From IMG/VR virus record IMGVR_UViG_2526164647_000009: a DNA stretch of 17,683 nt, one strand, 5' to 3'. The translations under genes were made by a program, and so were the position numbers. The DNA is from a virus (taxonomy: Duplodnaviria > Heunggongvirae > Uroviricota > Caudoviricetes). How positions within the stretch are numbered: position 1 is the first letter of the stretch; each line of letters starts with the position of its first letter. The notes beneath the pieces are model-generated. The model worked only from the letters and a program-made list of their open reading frames with translations. It was not told the DNA's origin and did not search any database. Shown in pieces: positions 1 to 16,872 of the stretch.

Positions 1-403
1 TTTCGGCGGGCGTGGGCCAGGCACCCGGCTTCCTTCACCCGGCCCGTTTCGTACAGTACGTTATAACCTGCATAGGCATCAGCCTGCAGTACGCCCTGAT
101 ACTTTGCCAGGTGGAGCTGCGGATGTTCTCCTTTGCGATCTGCCGAATACGCGAACCAGACGGCTGCCGGCAGGGATGAACCCGCATTACGATCATCCCT
201 GACGTATACCCACAGACGACCCGTTTTCGTCTTTCCGTTCCCCGGGGCCAGTACTTTCACCGGAGTGTCATCTGCGTGCACCTTTCCTGCCTCCAGAACA
301 TAGTCATTCAGCGCTATATACAGAGGACGGAGTTTGTCTGCCATTTCTGATACCCTGCGCACCATGGTATTACGGCTCAGCTCCACGCCCTGTCGCGCGT
401 ATA
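1..403 (-). pseudogene. IS66-family transposase (TnpC-like) internal fragment, cut by the window edge on one side and by the IS3-family insertion at 404/405 on the other
   Basis: My own minus-strand translation of 403->3 reads ...[134 protein letters not shown] with no stop. The motifs ([27 protein letters not shown]) are typical of the IS66 TnpC central region. The frame runs straight into the IS terminus at 404, so the gene is interrupted. It is not in the ORF track because it has no stop inside the window. Confidence 0.7.
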
Positions 404-447
404 TTGAGGTGTACTGGCAATAGCGGACACTACCATTTGTTCTTTTT

Positions 448-1266
448 TTAAGCAGCCATCTGATGATATTTTTCCCTGAAGGCTGCCGGGGAGATATTCC
501 CCAGACGAGAGTGACGACGCTGACGATTGTAGAAAATCTCAATGTATTCCCGTATTACTGAGATGGCTTCATCCCGGTTATTAAAACGATAGTGGCTCAG
601 GCTCTCATTTTTCAGCGTTCCCCAGAAGCTTTCCATCGGAGCGTTGTCGTAACAGTTACCTTTACGCGACATTGATGTTTTCAGACCAGACTGCTCCTGT
701 ATGACCCGGTAATCGTATGCGCAGTACTGTGAACCTCGATCAGAGTGGTGGATTAGCCCGGCAGGTGGGCGCTGGCTCCTGAGCGCCATAAACAGGGCTT
801 TACCTGTCAGCTCTTTTGTCATGCGCTCTCCCATGGCGTAGCCGACAATTTCGCACGTATAAACATCTTTGATGCCAGCGAGGTACAACCATCCCTCCTG
901 TGTGGCAACATACGTCAGGTCCGCCACCCAGACCTGATTTGGTGCTGTAGGAGCGAACGTCTGGTTCAGCAGATTTGGCGCAACTGGCAGATTGTGGTTC
1001 GGGTTCGTAGTCGCTCTGAACTTGCGTTTCTGCTTACAGCGTAGCCTCAGCTCCTTACGAAGACGTGCCAGTCGGTCACGACCAACGATGATGCCATTCT
1101 CTGCCAGCTCCGTCTGGAGCCGCCGGGTTCCATATGTTTCGCGAGTGCGGATATGTGCCACCTTAATCTCCAGTTTTAGCCGCTCATCACTTTGTTTTCT
1201 GTCTGAGGGTTCATGCTGTACCCAGTTGTAATAACCGCTCCTGGATACACCAAATACCTGACACAT
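448..1266 (-). CDS. IS3-family transposase OrfB (DDE catalytic domain), IS600-like, copy A
   Basis: The 272-aa ORF has the IS3-family integrase signature ([11 protein letters not shown]...EGWLYLA...HHSDRGSQY...[15 protein letters not shown]). It is in the -1 frame relative to the upstream orfA fragment. It differs from copy B at one residue (Leu32 versus Pro32, base 1172 versus 3113). Confidence 0.9.
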
Positions 1267-1301
1267 CGCTTCAATGGGAAATTGTTGTCGCCATTGTTCG
1301 A

Positions 1302-1482
1302 TTAACGCGTATTTTTCAGCGACTCCTGTGCAAAATACGCTGTTGATTTTTTTAATATATCGCGCTCAAGGCGAGCTTCATTTAACGCCTTACGCAGTTG
1401 CAGAATTTCAGATTCCAGTTCAGCCACCGTGCGGGAACCAGGAGTACCGAGCCCTTTTCTGGCGGCGGTAACCCATTGTCCT
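1302..1482 (-). pseudogene. IS3-family OrfA C-terminal fragment (leucine-zipper part only), IS600-like copy A; the N-terminal helix-turn-helix part is absent
   Basis: The translation ...GQWVTAARKGLGTPGSRTVAELESEILQLRKALNEARLERDILKKSTAYFAQESLKNTR shows a heptad Leu pattern and the YFA motif of IS3-family OrfA C-termini. An A7 run (1347-1353 on the minus strand) sits at the orfA/orfB overlap. The homology ends at about 1482, where the palindrome junction lies. Confidence 0.8.
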
Positions 1483-1487
1483 GAAGG

Positions 1488-1490
1488 CAC
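1488..1490. repeat. CAC, left copy of the 3-bp target-site duplication flanking IS629
   Basis: CAC lies immediately outside the IS629 terminus at 1491 and again at 2797-2799. Removing IS629 plus one CAC restores an open orfA reading frame (cct gaa ggc act tta gga caa tgg = PEGTLGQW). Confidence 0.8.
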
Positions 1491-1532
1491 TGAACCGCCC
1501 CGGGTTTCCTGGAGAGTGTTTTATCTGTGAAC

Positions 1533-2415
<883 letters not shown>

Positions 2416-2419
<4 letters not shown>

Positions 2420-2742
2420 TTTTTCCAGAGGCGGTCGAACTCCGCCTTCGCAAAATAAGCGGAAGCCTGGCGAAGGATATCGTTACTGCGGCGCAGTTCA
2501 CGATTTTCACGCTCCGGCTCTTTCAGACGCTGACGTTCAGCGGTGGTGAGCCCTCCATCACCGCCCCCGGTATCCCGCTCATGCTGGCGACCCCAGACAC
2601 GCAGAGTCTCCGGCGTACAGCCAATCTTTGGAGCAATGGAACAAATTGTCGCCCATTGTGAGTCATATTCGCCCTGACTTTCCAGAACCATACGGACTGC
2701 CCGTTGACGGACTTCGGGGGAAAAACGAGTATTTTTAGTCAT
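2416..2742 (-). CDS. IS629 transposase OrfA (helix-turn-helix and leucine zipper), 108 aa
   Basis: [108 protein letters not shown] matches my memory of IS629 OrfA. Its stop overlaps the orfB ATG (ATGA). It lies 40 bp inside the right-hand inverted repeat. Confidence 0.9.
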
Positions 2743-2796
2743 CCTGTTTACCTCTTTCTCAGGAAGTTTAGTCTCCAGGATTCCCGGGGCGGTTCA

Positions 2797-2799
2797 CAC
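2797..2799. repeat. CAC, right copy of the 3-bp target-site duplication flanking IS629
   Basis: Same trinucleotide as 1488-1490, directly abutting the other IS629 terminus. Confidence 0.8.
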
Positions 2800-2800
2800 T

Positions 2801-2983
2801 TTAGGACAATGGGTTACCGCCGCCAGAAAAGGGCTCGGTACTCCTGGTTCCCGCACGGTGGCTGAACTGGAATCTGAAATTCTGCAACTGCGTAAGGCGT
2901 TAAATGAAGCTCGCCTTGAGCGAGATATATTAAAAAAAGCAACAGCGTATTTTGCACAGGAGTCGCTGAAAAATACGCGTTAA
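2801..2983 (+). pseudogene. IS3-family OrfA C-terminal fragment, IS600-like copy B; the N-terminal part is absent from this window
   Basis: The frame reads LGQWVTAARKGLGTPGSRTVAELESEILQLRKALNEARLERDILKKATAYFAQESLKNTR and stops at 2981-2983. There is no upstream start, helix-turn-helix region or left inverted repeat. Confidence 0.8.
2932..2939 (+). promoter_or_regulatory. A7G (A AAA AAG type) -1 ribosomal frameshift motif at the orfA/orfB overlap of the IS600-like element
   Basis: The A7 run followed by G sits at the point where orfB is open in the -1 frame relative to orfA, which is the standard IS3-family OrfAB fusion mechanism. The mirror motif in copy A (1346-1353, minus strand) has T instead of G after the A7 run. 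Confidence 0.7.
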
Positions 2984-3018
2984 TCGAACAATGGCGACAA
3001 CAATTTCCCATTGAAGCG

Positions 3019-3837
3019 ATGTGTCAGGTATTTGGTGTATCCAGGAGCGGTTATTACAACTGGGTACAGCATGAACCCTCAGACAGAAAACAAAGTGATG
3101 AGCGGCTAAAACCGGAGATTAAGGTGGCACATATCCGCACTCGCGAAACATATGGAACCCGGCGGCTCCAGACGGAGCTGGCAGAGAATGGCATCATCGT
3201 TGGTCGTGACCGACTGGCACGTCTTCGTAAGGAGCTGAGGCTACGCTGTAAGCAGAAACGCAAGTTCAGAGCGACTACGAACCCGAACCACAATCTGCCA
3301 GTTGCGCCAAATCTGCTGAACCAGACGTTCGCTCCTACAGCACCAAATCAGGTCTGGGTGGCGGACCTGACGTATGTTGCCACACAGGAGGGATGGTTGT
3401 ACCTCGCTGGCATCAAAGATGTTTATACGTGTGAAATTGTCGGCTACGCCATGGGAGAGCGCATGACAAAAGAGCTGACAGGTAAAGCCCTGTTTATGGC
3501 GCTCAGGAGCCAGCGCCCACCTGCCGGGCTAATCCACCACTCTGATCGAGGTTCACAGTACTGCGCATACGATTACCGGGTCATACAGGAGCAGTCTGGT
3601 CTGAAAACATCAATGTCGCGTAAAGGTAACTGTTACGACAACGCTCCGATGGAAAGCTTCTGGGGAACGCTGAAAAATGAGAGCCTGAGCCACTATCGTT
3701 TTAATAACCGGGATGAAGCCATCTCAGTAATACGGGAATACATTGAGATTTTCTACAATCGTCAGCGTCGTCACTCTCGTCTGGGGAATATCTCCCCGGC
3801 AGCCTTCAGGGAAAAATATCATCAGATGGCTGCTTAA
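3019..3837 (+). CDS. IS3-family transposase OrfB (DDE domain), IS600-like, copy B
   Basis: The 272-aa ORF is identical to the copy A OrfB except for Pro32. Confidence 0.9.
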   Translation: MCQVFGVSRSGYYNWVQHEPSDRKQSDERLKPEIKVAHIRTRETYGTRRLQTELAENGIIVGRDRLARLRKELRLRCKQKRKFRATTNPNHNLPVAPNLLNQTFAPTAPNQVWVADLTYVATQEGWLYLAGIKDVYTCEIVGYAMGERMTKELTGKALFMALRSQRPPAGLIHHSDRGSQYCAYDYRVIQEQSGLKTSMSRKGNCYDNAPMESFWGTLKNESLSHYRFNNRDEAISVIREYIEIFYNRQRRHSRLGNISPAAFREKYHQMAA

Positions 3838-3882
3838 AAAAAGAACAAATGGTAGTGTCCGCTATTGCCAGTACACCTCAAA

Positions 3883-6275: not shown

Positions 6276-7865
6276 AACGAACGCCTGTCCTGATTGATGT
6301 GAACGGCGTTCCGCTTCGTGAGAGTCTCAGCTACAACGGAGGCGGCGCAGGATTTGGCGGGCAAATGGCAGAGTGGTTACCACCGGCGCAGAGTGCCGAT
6401 GCGGCCCTGTTGCCTGCATTGCGTCTGGGGAATGCCCGGGCAGATGATCTGGTGCGCAATAACGGTATCGCGGCTAATGCGGTGGCCCTGCATAAGGATC
6501 ATATCGTCGGGCACATGTTTCTTATCAGCTACCGTCTGAACTGGCGTTGGCTGGGGATGCGGGAGACCACGGCAAAAAGTTTTGTCGGGGAGGTGGAAGC
6601 AGCCTGGTCGGAATACGCAGAAGGAATGTTTGGCGAGATCGACGTGGAAGGGAAACGCACGTTTACGGAATTTATCCGTGAAGGGGTGGGCGTGCATGCC
6701 TTTAACGGCGAAATCTTTGTGCAGCCGGTCTGGGATACGGAAACCACGCAGTTATTCCGTACGCGTTTTAAAGCCGTGAGTCCGAAACGGGTGGACACGC
6801 CAGGACACGGTATGGGGAACCACTTTCTGCGGGCCGGGGTTGAGGTCGATCGGTATGGGCGGGCGATTGCGTACCATATCTGTGAGGATGATTTTCCGTT
6901 CTCTGGTGCCGGACGCTGGGAGCGGATCCCGCGTGAGCTTCCCACCGGGCGTCCGGCCATGCTGCATATTTTTGAGCCGGTGGAGGACGGGCAGACCCGT
7001 GGGGCCAATCAGTTTTACAGCGTAATGGAGCGGATGAAGATGCTGGACTCCCTGCAGGCCACGCAGCTTCAGTCGGCCATTGTGAAGGCGATGTATGCAG
7101 CCACAATCGAAAGTGAACTTGATACCGAAAAGGCATTTGAATATATCGCGGGGGCACCGCAAGGTCAGCAGGATAATCCGCTTATTAATATTCTGGAGAA
7201 GTTCACCCGCTGGTATGACACGAATAACGTGACGCTGGGCGGTGTTAAAATTCCGCACCTTTTTTCCTGGCGATGCGCTGAACCTGCAGACAGCGCAGGA
7301 TTCAGACAATGGATTTTCGGCGCTTGAACAGGCGCTGCTGCGGTATATTGCAGCCGGTCTTGGCGTTTCCTACGAACAGTTGTCCCGTGATTACTCGAAG
7401 GTCAGTTACTCAAGTGCCCGTGCCTCCGCCAATGAGTCGTGGCGCTATTTTATGGGGCGGCGAAAATTTATTGCGGCCCGGCTGGCCACGCAGATGTTTT
7501 CCTGCTGGCTGGAAGAGGCGCTTCTTCGGGGGATTATTCGTCCGCCACGGGCGCGTTTTGATTTTTACCAGGCGCGTTCAGCCTGGTCACGGGCAGAGTG
7601 GATTGGCTCCGGAAGAATGGCCATTGACGGGCTCAAGGAGGTCCAGGAATCGGTGATGCGCATTGAGGCCGGACTGAGCACGTATGAGAAAGAACTGGCA
7701 CTGATGGGCGAAGATTATCAGGACATTTTCCGCCAGCAGGTCAGGGAATCCGCAGAGCGCGAAAAAGCCGGACTCTCACGTCCGGTGTGGATAGCCCAGG
7801 CGTATCAGCAGCAGATAGCGGAGAGTCGCAGGCCGGAAGAGGAGACAACATCACGTGAGACGTAA
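6272..7865 (+). pseudogene. B: Portal protein (lambda gpB-like) with a +1 frameshift at the T6 run 7260-7265
   Basis: ORF 6272-7327 carries the N-terminal 330 or so residues (...GGGAGFGGQ...ARADDLVRNNG...IFEPVEDGQTRGANQFYSVME...SAIVKAMYAATIESELDT...GGVKIPHLF). ORF 7242-7865 carries the remainder (FPGDALNLQTAQDSDNGFS...LLRYIAAGLGVSYEQLSR...WIGSGRMAIDGLKEVQE...). Both align with lambda B. The total span is 3n+1. Confidence 0.9.
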
Positions 7866-13435: not shown

Positions 13436-13822
13436 ATGTTTCTGAAACAGGATACGTTTAATTATGAAAAACAGTCCGTGGTGCTCAGTGAGCTGTCCGG
13501 GCTGCAGAGAATTGAATATCTGACGTTTGTTCAGCAGCGAACGGCAAAGTTTGATGCACAGGAGGGAGAACTGCCGGAGGCTGAACGACAGATTGCTTTT
13601 CTGCGTATGGGAATGGATATCAATGCCTGGCTGGTTTCCCGCTCACTGTGGAATGCTGAGCAGTCTCAGGATGTTGAGACGCTTTGCGCATCCATTATGA
13701 CAACATGGTCGTATGATGCGCTGGGCGCGGGGGCGGAGAGGGTTCTGTCGCTGAGCGGTATGGGGACCATTGAGAATGCCGGGGATGATGATCATGAGGC
13801 GCTGACGCCGGAAAAGTCCTGA
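13436..13822 (+). CDS. G: Tail assembly chaperone G (lambda gpG-like)
   Basis: MFLKQDTFNYEKQSVVLSELSGLQRIEYL... resembles lambda G (MFLKTESFEHNGVTVTLSELSALQRIEHL...). The acidic C-terminus and the position before the overlapping T frame are conserved. Confidence 0.9.
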   Translation: MFLKQDTFNYEKQSVVLSELSGLQRIEYLTFVQQRTAKFDAQEGELPEAERQIAFLRMGMDINAWLVSRSLWNAEQSQDVETLCASIMTTWSYDALGAGAERVLSLSGMGTIENAGDDDHEALTPEKS

Positions 13823-14160
13823 CGCGGGAAATGCAGTTTGTCATGCGGCTTGCCCGGGAGTTCCGGCGGGCAGACTGGCGGCGGATGCTGTCGGATATGT
13901 CGGCCACTGAGCTTGGTGAGTGGGGCGATTATTTCCGGATGCAGAGCTTCAGTGATGTGTGGATGGATGCGCAGTTTGCCTCGCTGAAGGCATTGATCGT
14001 GAGAATGGTGTCCGGCAGCAGCGATGCTGCGGTGGCTGATTTCAGCCTTTTACCGGAAGAGAACGGGATACCGGAGCGAACGGACGAAGAACTGATGCAT
14101 CTTGGGGAAGGTATTTCCGGAGGTGTGCGTTATGGACCAGATAGCCAACCTGGTCATTGA
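13798..14160 (+). CDS. T: T portion of the tail assembly chaperone G-T fusion (lambda gpT-like), in the -1 frame relative to G; expected to be expressed only as a G-T fusion by ribosomal frameshifting
   Basis: The -1 frame is open from 13798, directly after its own stop at 13795-13797, and overlaps the last 22 nt of G. It reads ...GKVLTREMQFVMRLAREFRRADWRRM.... The G/T arrangement matches lambda. The only slip candidate in the overlap is GGAAAAG at 13810-13816. Confidence 0.8.
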   Translation, partial: GADAGKVLTREMQFVMRLAREFRRADWRRMLSDMSATELGEWGDYFRMQSFSDVWMDAQFASLKALIVRMVSGSSDAAVADFSLLPEENGIPERTDEELMHLGEGISGGVRYGPDSQPGH

Positions 14161-16872
14161 TTTGGGGATTGATGCGGCAGAGTTTAAAAATGAAATTCCC
14201 CGTATCAAAAACCTTCTGAATGGTGCAGCCAGCGATGCAGAACGGTCTTCTGCCCGTATGCAGCGTTTTATGGAGCGTCAGACTCAGGCGGCCCGGCAGA
14301 CAATGCAGGCGGCTTCTTCGGCTGCAACAGCAGCATCAGCCCATGCGCAGACGGTGGAGAAGAATGCACGGGCTCATGAACGCATGGCCCGTGAGGTGGA
14401 ACAAACCCGTCTGCGCGTGGATGCCCTGAATCAGAAAATGCGCGAGGAACAGGCGCAGGCCAGGGCGGCTCAGCTGGGGGTAAGCAGTGCTGCAGAAGTG
14501 TATATCCGCAAAATGGAGCGGGCAGGAAAAGCCACACATTCGCTGGGGCTGAAAAGTGCGGCAGCCCGGCGGGAGCTGGGGGTGTTAATCAGTCAGATGG
14601 CGCGCGGCAATTTTGGTGCGCTGAGGGGATCCGGGATAACGCTGGCTAACCGTGCCGGATGGACTGGCGCACTGATGTCGCCGAAAGGCATGATGACTGG
14701 CGGCGTTATTGGCGGACTTGTCGCGGCGGTCCTGGGTCTGGGTAAAGCCTGGCATGACGGCCGGAAGGAGGGCGAGAAATTTAACCGTCAGCTGGCGCTG
14801 ACGGGACATTATGCCGGTGTCACTGTCGGGCAGTTGTGGAAACTCAGCCGGGCCATATCCGGGAATGGTATCACGCAACATGCGGCAGCCGGTGCGCTGG
14901 CACAGGTGGTGGGCAGTGGGGCATTTCATGGAAACGATATTGGTATGGTGGCGAAAGCTGCCGCACAGATGGAGCGATCGGTTGGCCAGTCGGTCAGCGA
15001 TACCATAAATCAGTTTAAGCGGCTGAAGGATGATCCTGTAAATGCCGCGAAGGCGCTGGACAATGCGCTGCATTTTTTGAATGCCACTCAGCTTGAGCAG
15101 ATACGCGTCCTTGGGGAGCAAGGGGCGGTCCAGTGATGCGGCCCGGATCGCCATGTCTGCGCTGGCAGAGGAAACCGGTAAACGCACATCTGATATTGAT
15201 AATAATCTCAATGCGCTGGGTAGTACGCTGCAAACCTTGTCTGACTGGTGGAAGCAGTTCTGGGATGCGGCCATGAATATTGGTCGTGAAGACTCGCTGG
15301 ATGCGCAGATCGATGCGTTACAGGAAAAAATTCAGCGCGCGAAAAAATATCCGTGGACAAACGCCTCCACACAGGTGGAGTACGATCAGCAGCGTCTTAA
15401 CGATCTTCAGGAGAAAAAACGCCGGAAGGATTTGCAGGATGCAAAAGCGCAGGCAGAACGGAATTACCAGGAGCAACAGAAACGCCGGAATGCTGAAAAT
15501 GCCGCGCTGAACCGGATGAATGAAACGGAAGCTGCACGACATCAGCGGGAAATTGCGCGTATTAATGCCATGCAGTACGCCGACCAGGCTGTCAGGGATG
15601 CGGCGATACAGCGTGAAAATGAACGTTACGAAAAAGCCATTAAGAAAAATACACGGGCAACCCGTAATGATGAGGCCACCCGGTTATTGCTGCAGTACAG
15701 TCAGCAGCAGGCACAGGTGGAAGGGCAGATTGCTGCTGCCAGACAGTCAGCAGGCATTGCCACTGAAAGGATGACTGAAGCGCATAAACAGCTTCTGGCC
15801 CTGCAGCAGCGCATCAGCGACCTGGACGGGAAAAAGCTGACGGCAGATGAAAAGAGTGTGCTGGCCCGTAAGAATGAGCTGATTCAGGCGCTGACGCTGC
15901 TGGATGTGAAACAGCAGGAGCTGCAGAAACAGACAGCGCTTAACGACCTGAGAAAAGAAAACGGTTCAGCTGACCAGCCAGCTGGCAGACAAAGAACGTG
16001 CACTGCGTGAGCAGCACAATCTGGATATTGCCACTGCAGGTATGGGGGATAAGCAGCGGCAGCGCTACCAGGCACCGTTGCGCATCCGGCAGGAATACCG
16101 GCAACAGTTGCAACAGCTTGAGAATGACAGTCGCCAGAAAGGCACTTACGGGACGGAGGACTACCGGAGGGCTGAGGAGGTGCTGAAGGGGAGCCTGAAG
16201 CGACAACTGAATGAAAACAAACGCTACTGGCAGGAACTGGAAGTGGCGCAGGGCGACTGGAAAAACGGTGCCATGCGGGCGTTTCAGAATTTTACGGCGG
16301 ATGCGGATAATGCGGCGGGAACGGCAGAACAGATGTTTACAGTGGCATTCAGCAGTGCCGGTAATGCACTGGCGACATTCTGTACCACCGGTAAGCTGAA
16401 TTTTAAATCCTTCACCTCTTCCCTGTTGTCAGATATGGCCAGAATTATGGCACAGATGGCCATGATGCAGGCGGTAAAGGGCGTCGGTTCTTTATTCGGC
16501 TTCACGACTAATGCTGATGGCGGTGTTTACCAGTCTGCTGATTTGAGTCGCTACAGTGGCACGGTGGTTAACCGTCCGACGTTTTTTGCTTTTGCAAAAG
16601 GCGCGGGTGTGATGGGGGAAGCGGGACCTGAAGCCATTCTGCCACTGCGTCGCGGTGCTGATGGTAAGCTGGGGGTTGTGGCGGATACTGGTGGTTCAGG
16701 CATGGTGATGTTTGCCCCGCAGTACAACATTGAGATCAATAACGACGGCACGAACGGGCAGATAGGTCCGGCTGCCCTGAAGGTGGTTTATGACCTCGGG
16801 AAAAAAGCGGCCGCGGACTTTATGCAACAGCAGGCCCGTGATGGTGGCCGGTTAAGTGGAGCATACCGGTAA
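14132..16872 (+). pseudogene. H: Tail tape measure protein (lambda gpH-like) broken by two +1 frameshifts, within 15081-15134 and within 15952-16010
   Basis: Three consecutive ORFs in frames 2, 0 and 1 together align with lambda H from N-terminus to C-terminus (MDQIANLVIDLGIDAAEF... to ...INNDGTNGQIGPAALKVVYDLGKKAAADFMQQQARDGG, compared with lambda ...VINNDGTNGQIGPAALKAVYDMARKGARDEIQTQMRDGG). The total span is 2741 nt (3n+2). A GGAGG ribosome-binding site lies 8 nt before the ATG at 14132. Confidence 0.9.

Follow-up and report, generated by a model that had tools for sequence, protein, structure and literature searches.

An extra A at one site splits the tape-measure gene of a defective lambdoid prophage in the Shigella flexneri K-218 draft: probable consensus error or private mutation

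Why is the tape-measure gene of this prophage recorded in pieces, and which base is responsible for the first break? A preliminary description had placed a +1 frameshift between positions 15081 and 15134, probably in a run of four G. Three kinds of answer are conceivable: the shift may be programmed, it may be a mutation in a decaying prophage, or it may have entered the record during sequencing. To choose among them, one has to know where the extra base lies, who else carries it, and in what state the gene and its prophage are.

By exact-protein look-ups, the window, that is the whole stretch of 17,683 nucleotides analysed here, is contig AFGV01000031.1 of the draft genome GCA_000213675.2 of S. 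flexneri K-218. This strain is of serotype 1b and was isolated in Bangladesh (PMC4924310). The window holds the late region of a lambdoid prophage, with the gene order Nu1, terminase, W, portal, protease, D-like, capsid, FI, Z, U, V, G, T, tape measure, M and L. The broken gene has Phage_TAC_2 and Phage_tail_T on its 5' side and Phage_min_tail and Phage_tail_L on its 3' side, which puts it between the chaperones G/T and the tail-tip genes M/L. As recorded it is not a single ORF, the form expected of a gpH gene, and consists of three ORFs in three frames, over which the Pfam domains TMP_2, TMP_4 and Tape_meas_lam_C follow one another from N to C terminus (Table 1). The repaired protein is colinear with lambda gpH from end to end, including across the shift site, at 25% identity (E = 9e-46), and LSDWWKQFWDAAMNIGRED pairs with lambda ...ARAFKSMWDAVLDIGRPD. 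From its domains, the order G-T-H-M-L and this colinear alignment, the gene is a tape-measure gene of the lambda family. Both this assignment and the lambda motif comparison that the preliminary description had offered for it hold up.

The relatives of the gene provide the standard against which its breaks can be read. Lambda and the group of lambdoid phages mEp460, cdtI and Ayreon share with the window the order G, T, H, M, L and the same three Pfam domains. Within that group, DNA identity to the window over the tape-measure region is 87%, and the tape-measure genes of mEp460 and cdtI are intact. The window differs from all of these in having its gene in three frames, by two one-base insertions, and in missing 101 codons. 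Much closer are prophages of enteroinvasive E. coli such as CFSAN029787, to which the tape-measure region is 99.6% identical in DNA and in which the gene is an intact CDS of 1013 aa (WP_046881168.1). The finished genome of S. flexneri 2003036 (CP004057) carries the same prophage as the window and shares its portal frameshift and its IS600 junction by Nu1. Compared with the window, CFSAN029787 and CP004057 both have one A at the first site, A8 at the second and an additional 303 bp. Upstream, at the G/T chaperone junction of the window (13808-13833), GGAAAAG stands just before the stop codon of G (13820-13822), and T is read in the -1 frame with respect to G. Here the conserved G-T programmed -1 frameshift would be expected, but the heptamer differs from the GGGAAAG of lambda.

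What do the reading frames look like around the first break? Direct reading gives ATG at 15081-15083, GGGG at 15113-15116, AA at 15120-15121, a further GGGG at 15122-15125 and TGA at 15134-15136. The upstream ORF (14102..15136) terminates with ...LEQIRVLGEQGAVQ and a stop, while the ORF in the +1 frame (15081..16010) reads ...GRSSDAARIAMSALAEETGKRTSD...LSDWWKQFWDAAMNIGRED, its continuation being given also as WWKQFWDAAMNIGRED. This agrees with the earlier reading, in which the H frame stops at 15134 and the +1 frame, open from 15081, continues the protein. The public annotation already shows the split, since GenBank enters the gene as three separate CDSs: EGK26703.1, EGK26698.1 (15153-16010, 285 aa) and EGK26695.1. 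Against the intact E. coli orthologue, three length differences are found in the gene: the in-frame deletion of 303 bp at 14459, an A at 15120 and a G at 15957. The shift within 15081-15134 is thus the first of two, as had been supposed. If bases 15120 and 15957 are taken out, one ORF of 912 aa results, which apart from a gap of 101 residues is identical to the intact 1013-aa orthologue at 907 of 912 positions. Since deletion of one base restores such identity, this is a real split gene and not a chance pair of ORFs. With only the first site repaired, the ORF stops at aa 625. For the insertion allele at the second site, the complete genomes of E. coli gave no exact match. The A8 run in which it lies (15953-15961) differs a good deal in length between records, from A8 in the intact gene to A7 in CP034060 as well as in several other drafts, and to A5 in a single contig of the viral collection. 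Such variation may be due either to slippage or to miscalls.

The frame by itself does not tell which base is extra, for any one-base deletion between 15081 and 15133 restores it, and a G gained in one of the two G4 runs (15113-15116 or 15122-15125) would account for it, as the preliminary description proposed. Alignment with intact relatives does discriminate. They read GGGGAGCAGGGGCGG where the window reads GGGGAGCAAGGGGCGG; in codons, GAG CAG GGG CGG (E Q G R) has its CAG changed to CAAG. In more than 120 comparators both runs are G4 and only one A stands between GC and GGGG; a few of them have GAACAG or GAGCTG at the site, and no orthologue with GCAAGGGC (A2, G3) was found among them. The 117 loci that were fetched read CCTTGGGGAGCAGGGGCGG, and the extra A appears only in the K-218 contig, which has GCAAGGGGC for the single-A form GCAGGGGC. 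Because the flanking bases are identical, the alignment is unambiguous, and the only indel is A to AA at 15120/15121. Hence the one-base shift within the interval stands, and the proposed G does not: both G4 runs have the same length in the window and in all intact relatives, so that a location of the extra base in either of them is scarcely credible. The intact relatives place the shift elsewhere in the interval, an outcome that the preliminary description had itself named as one that would speak against its placement. Either A of 15120/15121 may be counted as the extra one, the two being indistinguishable on alignment. In short, the ORF is almost certainly broken by one extra A, a non-programmed insertion without function.

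Table 1. Lesions, insertion sequences and tape-measure fragments in the window
Feature	Position	Strand	Basis or remark
Inverted IS600 pair (405-1486, 2797-3880) around another IS3-family element (ORFs 1533-2742)	405..3880	.	adjoins Nu1
T6 run in portal gene, T5 in intact E. coli orthologue; frameshift	7255..7260	+	comparison with orthologue
N-terminal tape-measure fragment, 334 aa, ending in GAVQ and a stop through the shift	14132..15136	+	GenBank EGK26703.1; Pfam TMP_2, E = 1e-46
Junction of 303-bp (101-codon) in-frame deletion at 8-bp direct repeat GCCAGGGC	14451..14466	+	comparison with 1013-aa orthologue
Frameshifting lesion, A to AA	15120..15121	+	pairwise and multiple comparisons with loci L001-L020 and L125-L128
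Middle fragment, +1 frame, ended by the second private insertion	15135..16010	+	Pfam TMP_4, E = 4.9e-17
Second private +1 insertion, G within A8 run (AAAAAAAA to AAAAGAAAA)	15957	+	comparison with intact relatives
C-terminal fragment, 276 aa	16042..16872	+	GenBank EGK26695.1; Pfam Tape_meas_lam_C, E = 1.9e-25

In what kind of prophage does this gene lie? The portal frameshift gives a truncated portal of 320 aa, which was found on nine contigs. These include the finished genome CP004057 and contigs from four further S. flexneri drafts, besides others from ENA and Logan assemblies. The portal frameshift is ancestral and genuine, and it had inactivated the prophage before the tape-measure lesion arose. 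In addition, a nest of insertion sequences occupies the place of the early and lysis genes beside Nu1. An IS66-family fragment at 1-281 forms the upstream end of this nest (1-3880). Because the portal frameshift and the IS600 insertions already block particle formation, the tape-measure gene is under no selection. The first break thus has what is expected of a pseudogene in that an intact orthologue exists, the disabling change is discrete, and other, independent inactivating lesions are present in the element. The 303-bp deletion occurs also in the complete genome CP034060 and in several short-read S. flexneri assemblies; as other records of the species share it, it is a real allele. Since the length of the tail follows that of gpH, this deletion would be expected to shorten the tail in a working phage.

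Is the extra A shared in the same way? Among the 581 E. coli complete-genome records that hold the segment, none has the extra-A allele; the best match is 59/60 and none reaches 99%. A scan of species-representative genomes (GTDB) with a variable-gap pattern gave five copies, two of them in S. flexneri SFBU1023, and all five have the single A, the extra-A form being absent. An exact 36-mer with AA had no matches in JGI metagenomes or IMG/VR, and the single-A 35-mer, used as a positive control, matched 32 times in the former and 70 times in the latter. The two products of the lesion, of 334 and 285 aa, were found by exact-protein look-up on one contig only, that of K-218; such look-ups are weak evidence alone, for NCBI's current pipeline emits no proteins for frameshifted genes, and the DNA scans are stronger. 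The closest S. flexneri relatives run through the site in one frame, with ...LGEQGRSSDA.... Among them are the proteins P0004 and P0006, in which the 303-bp deletion is also present, and the sister strain 6603-63, which is without the extra A and over 9.7 kb of the same prophage is separated from K-218 by 6 substitutions and no gap. Neither in an independent assembly nor in a related strain was a second record of the lesion found, which for a pseudogene would have been the corroborating sign. Over the collections scanned, the extra-A allele is confined to one draft record.

How do the early drafts compare with a finished genome? CP004057 has an unbroken tape-measure gene (1013 aa), whereas each of the drafts of 2747-71, 6603-63, AKMZ01 and K-218 has it split in a different way. 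Over 13.5 kb, these drafts have 17 one-base indels relative to CP004057 (6, 3, 6 and 2, respectively). Most of them are unique to one draft and nearly all, or at any rate the greater part, lie in A, T or G runs. Private substitutions in five drafts, the four and AFGZ01, number about 22, so that the ratio of indels to substitutions is about 0.6-0.8. In mutation-accumulation work on E. coli this ratio is roughly 0.1. The ratio found in the drafts is several times that of real mutation. The indels are also clustered: the tape-measure gene, 3 kb long, has 12 of the 17 (binomial P = 3e-5). Others in the drafts (loci L015, L016, L018 and L019) lie in the terminase and G/T genes; these genes are intact in CP004057 (L017). 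Homopolymer density was considered as the cause of the clustering and found insufficient alone, runs of at least 5 being about 1.2-fold and runs of at least 6 about 2.3-fold enriched, against an 8-fold enrichment of indels. The tape-measure gene is present at 3 places in CFSAN029787, in up to 5 copies per E. coli genome and in 2 copies in S. flexneri SFBU1023. It is also a point at which many short-read assemblies end, so that pieces of the protein are left on contigs of 200-400 bp. Taken together, these features point to systematic consensus problems with a repeated gene in the early S. flexneri drafts, or else to some unusual local process, and the one-base indels in their tape-measure genes are probably artefacts.

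For K-218 itself, the private substitutions are at 7006 and 7421 in the portal gene and at 14665, 15311 and 16076 in the tape-measure gene, and are absent from 10-40 comparators. None was seen in the remaining ~9 kb, where the prophage genes look intact; few as they are, these substitutions are not spread uniformly. No private indel was found in the other 10.7 kb of the prophage, and both IS600 copies are gap-free against a reference.

Could the ribosome correct the break? A programmed +1 frameshift like that of prfB, taking place at CAG-UGA with AAGGGG as an internal Shine-Dalgarno sequence, would yield a near-normal product reading ...EQGAVQ-DAARIAMS.... The sequence has some likeness to such a site: the CAG before UGA is preceded, at a distance of 5 nt, by a G-rich stretch resembling a Shine-Dalgarno sequence, and the +1 frame continues the protein. 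But the two-frame arrangement is found in no relative, every other record being single-frame. In CAG UGA U, moreover, the step from CAG to AGU allows no re-pairing, and a heptamer of the form X XXY YYZ was looked for in 15081-15134 and not found. The product would still be truncated, at aa 625, by the unrelated second frameshift 837 nt downstream, and with no functional portal there is nothing to select for recoding. On these grounds programmed frameshifting is ruled out; whatever chance we would leave it is negligible. Then did the extra A arise in the cell or in the record? A sequencing or assembly consensus error in the 2011 draft of K-218, in a gene present in several near-identical prophage copies per genome, is the reading we favour, with moderate confidence. 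It is favoured because the allele is unique, the same prophage is intact in CP004057, indels are in excess in the sister drafts, and the gene is multi-copy. The closest relatives and the finished genome agree on the other allele, as they should if the draft is in error. Some observations speak against an error. The change from A1 to A2 is directly 5' of an unchanged G4, beside the run and without any change of run length, so it is no classic homopolymer-length miscall. Nor is the K-218 assembly generally poor, since it has no private indel in the rest of the prophage and its IS600 copies are gap-free. The three private substitutions in the same gene fit a genuinely diverged copy. A particular route to an error, in which flow-space signals or collapsed paralogues were mixed (CAG-GGGG and CAA-GGG giving AAGGGG), had no support: in the 120+ loci, and likewise in more distant tape-measure genes of E. 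coli, the only variants at the site are GAGCAGGGG, GAACAGGGG and GAGCTGGGG. At the second site, where an origin by mixing was looked for likewise, no AAAGAAAA variant was found.

The main competitor is a genuine mutation private to K-218, in which a single A was duplicated during replication in an unselected gene of a dead prophage, leaving a pseudogene with two frameshifts. We hold it to be a serious possibility, though a less probable one than a consensus error. The prophage is demonstrably dead and decaying, as the shared T5-to-T6 change in the portal gene and the insertion sequences that replace the early region indicate. Other S. flexneri lineages seem to have real tape-measure lesions as well, and a C-terminal ORF of 451 aa on 16 contigs implies an upstream break. 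The three private substitutions of K-218 lie in the same 1.4 kb. Spontaneous +1 events outside runs are usually duplications of a neighbouring base. Yet two insertions and three substitutions in 1.4 kb, against 2 substitutions and 0 indels in the remaining 11.8 kb, are far from the uniform spread of neutral decay. The ratio of indels to substitutions is much above expectation, and it is so in the sister drafts and not in the finished genome, and no second record supports the allele. One might also suppose that it is real biology which makes one-base indels (12 of 17) and private substitutions gather in the tape-measure gene, with the A insertion as one such event. If so, there may have been, for example, gene conversion among decaying paralogous prophage copies, or the gene may be locally hypermutable; this we consider improbable. 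From the position of the base, its privacy, the intact copy elsewhere and the indel excess of the sister drafts, all of which were observed, we infer that the extra A probably came from base-calling or assembly and not from the cell, and a consensus error in the draft is thus preferred to a strain-private mutation.

The lesion is of a familiar kind and nothing about it is novel: one inserted base interrupts a long structural gene, in a cryptic prophage of Shigella. It resembles both the frameshifts known from such prophages and the indel errors known from early drafts, in that a one-base indel splits a long structural gene in a defective prophage ridden with insertion sequences. As with the homopolymer indel errors of early drafts, the sister drafts have strain-specific indels of their own, mostly in A, T or G runs. 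Unlike the textbook form of either process, the insertion in the window is at a single A beside G4 and not inside a run.

What does the finding mean? Its biological weight is little, for the prophage makes no particles with or without the extra A. Being private to one draft, the extra A should serve neither to mark a lineage nor to argue for recoding. Its value is rather for curation: the shift has been pinned to one base, an A and not a G, which occurs in a single draft and may be absent from the bacterium itself. It also serves as a warning that in early S. flexneri drafts the tape-measure genes have unusually many one-base indels, most likely artefacts.
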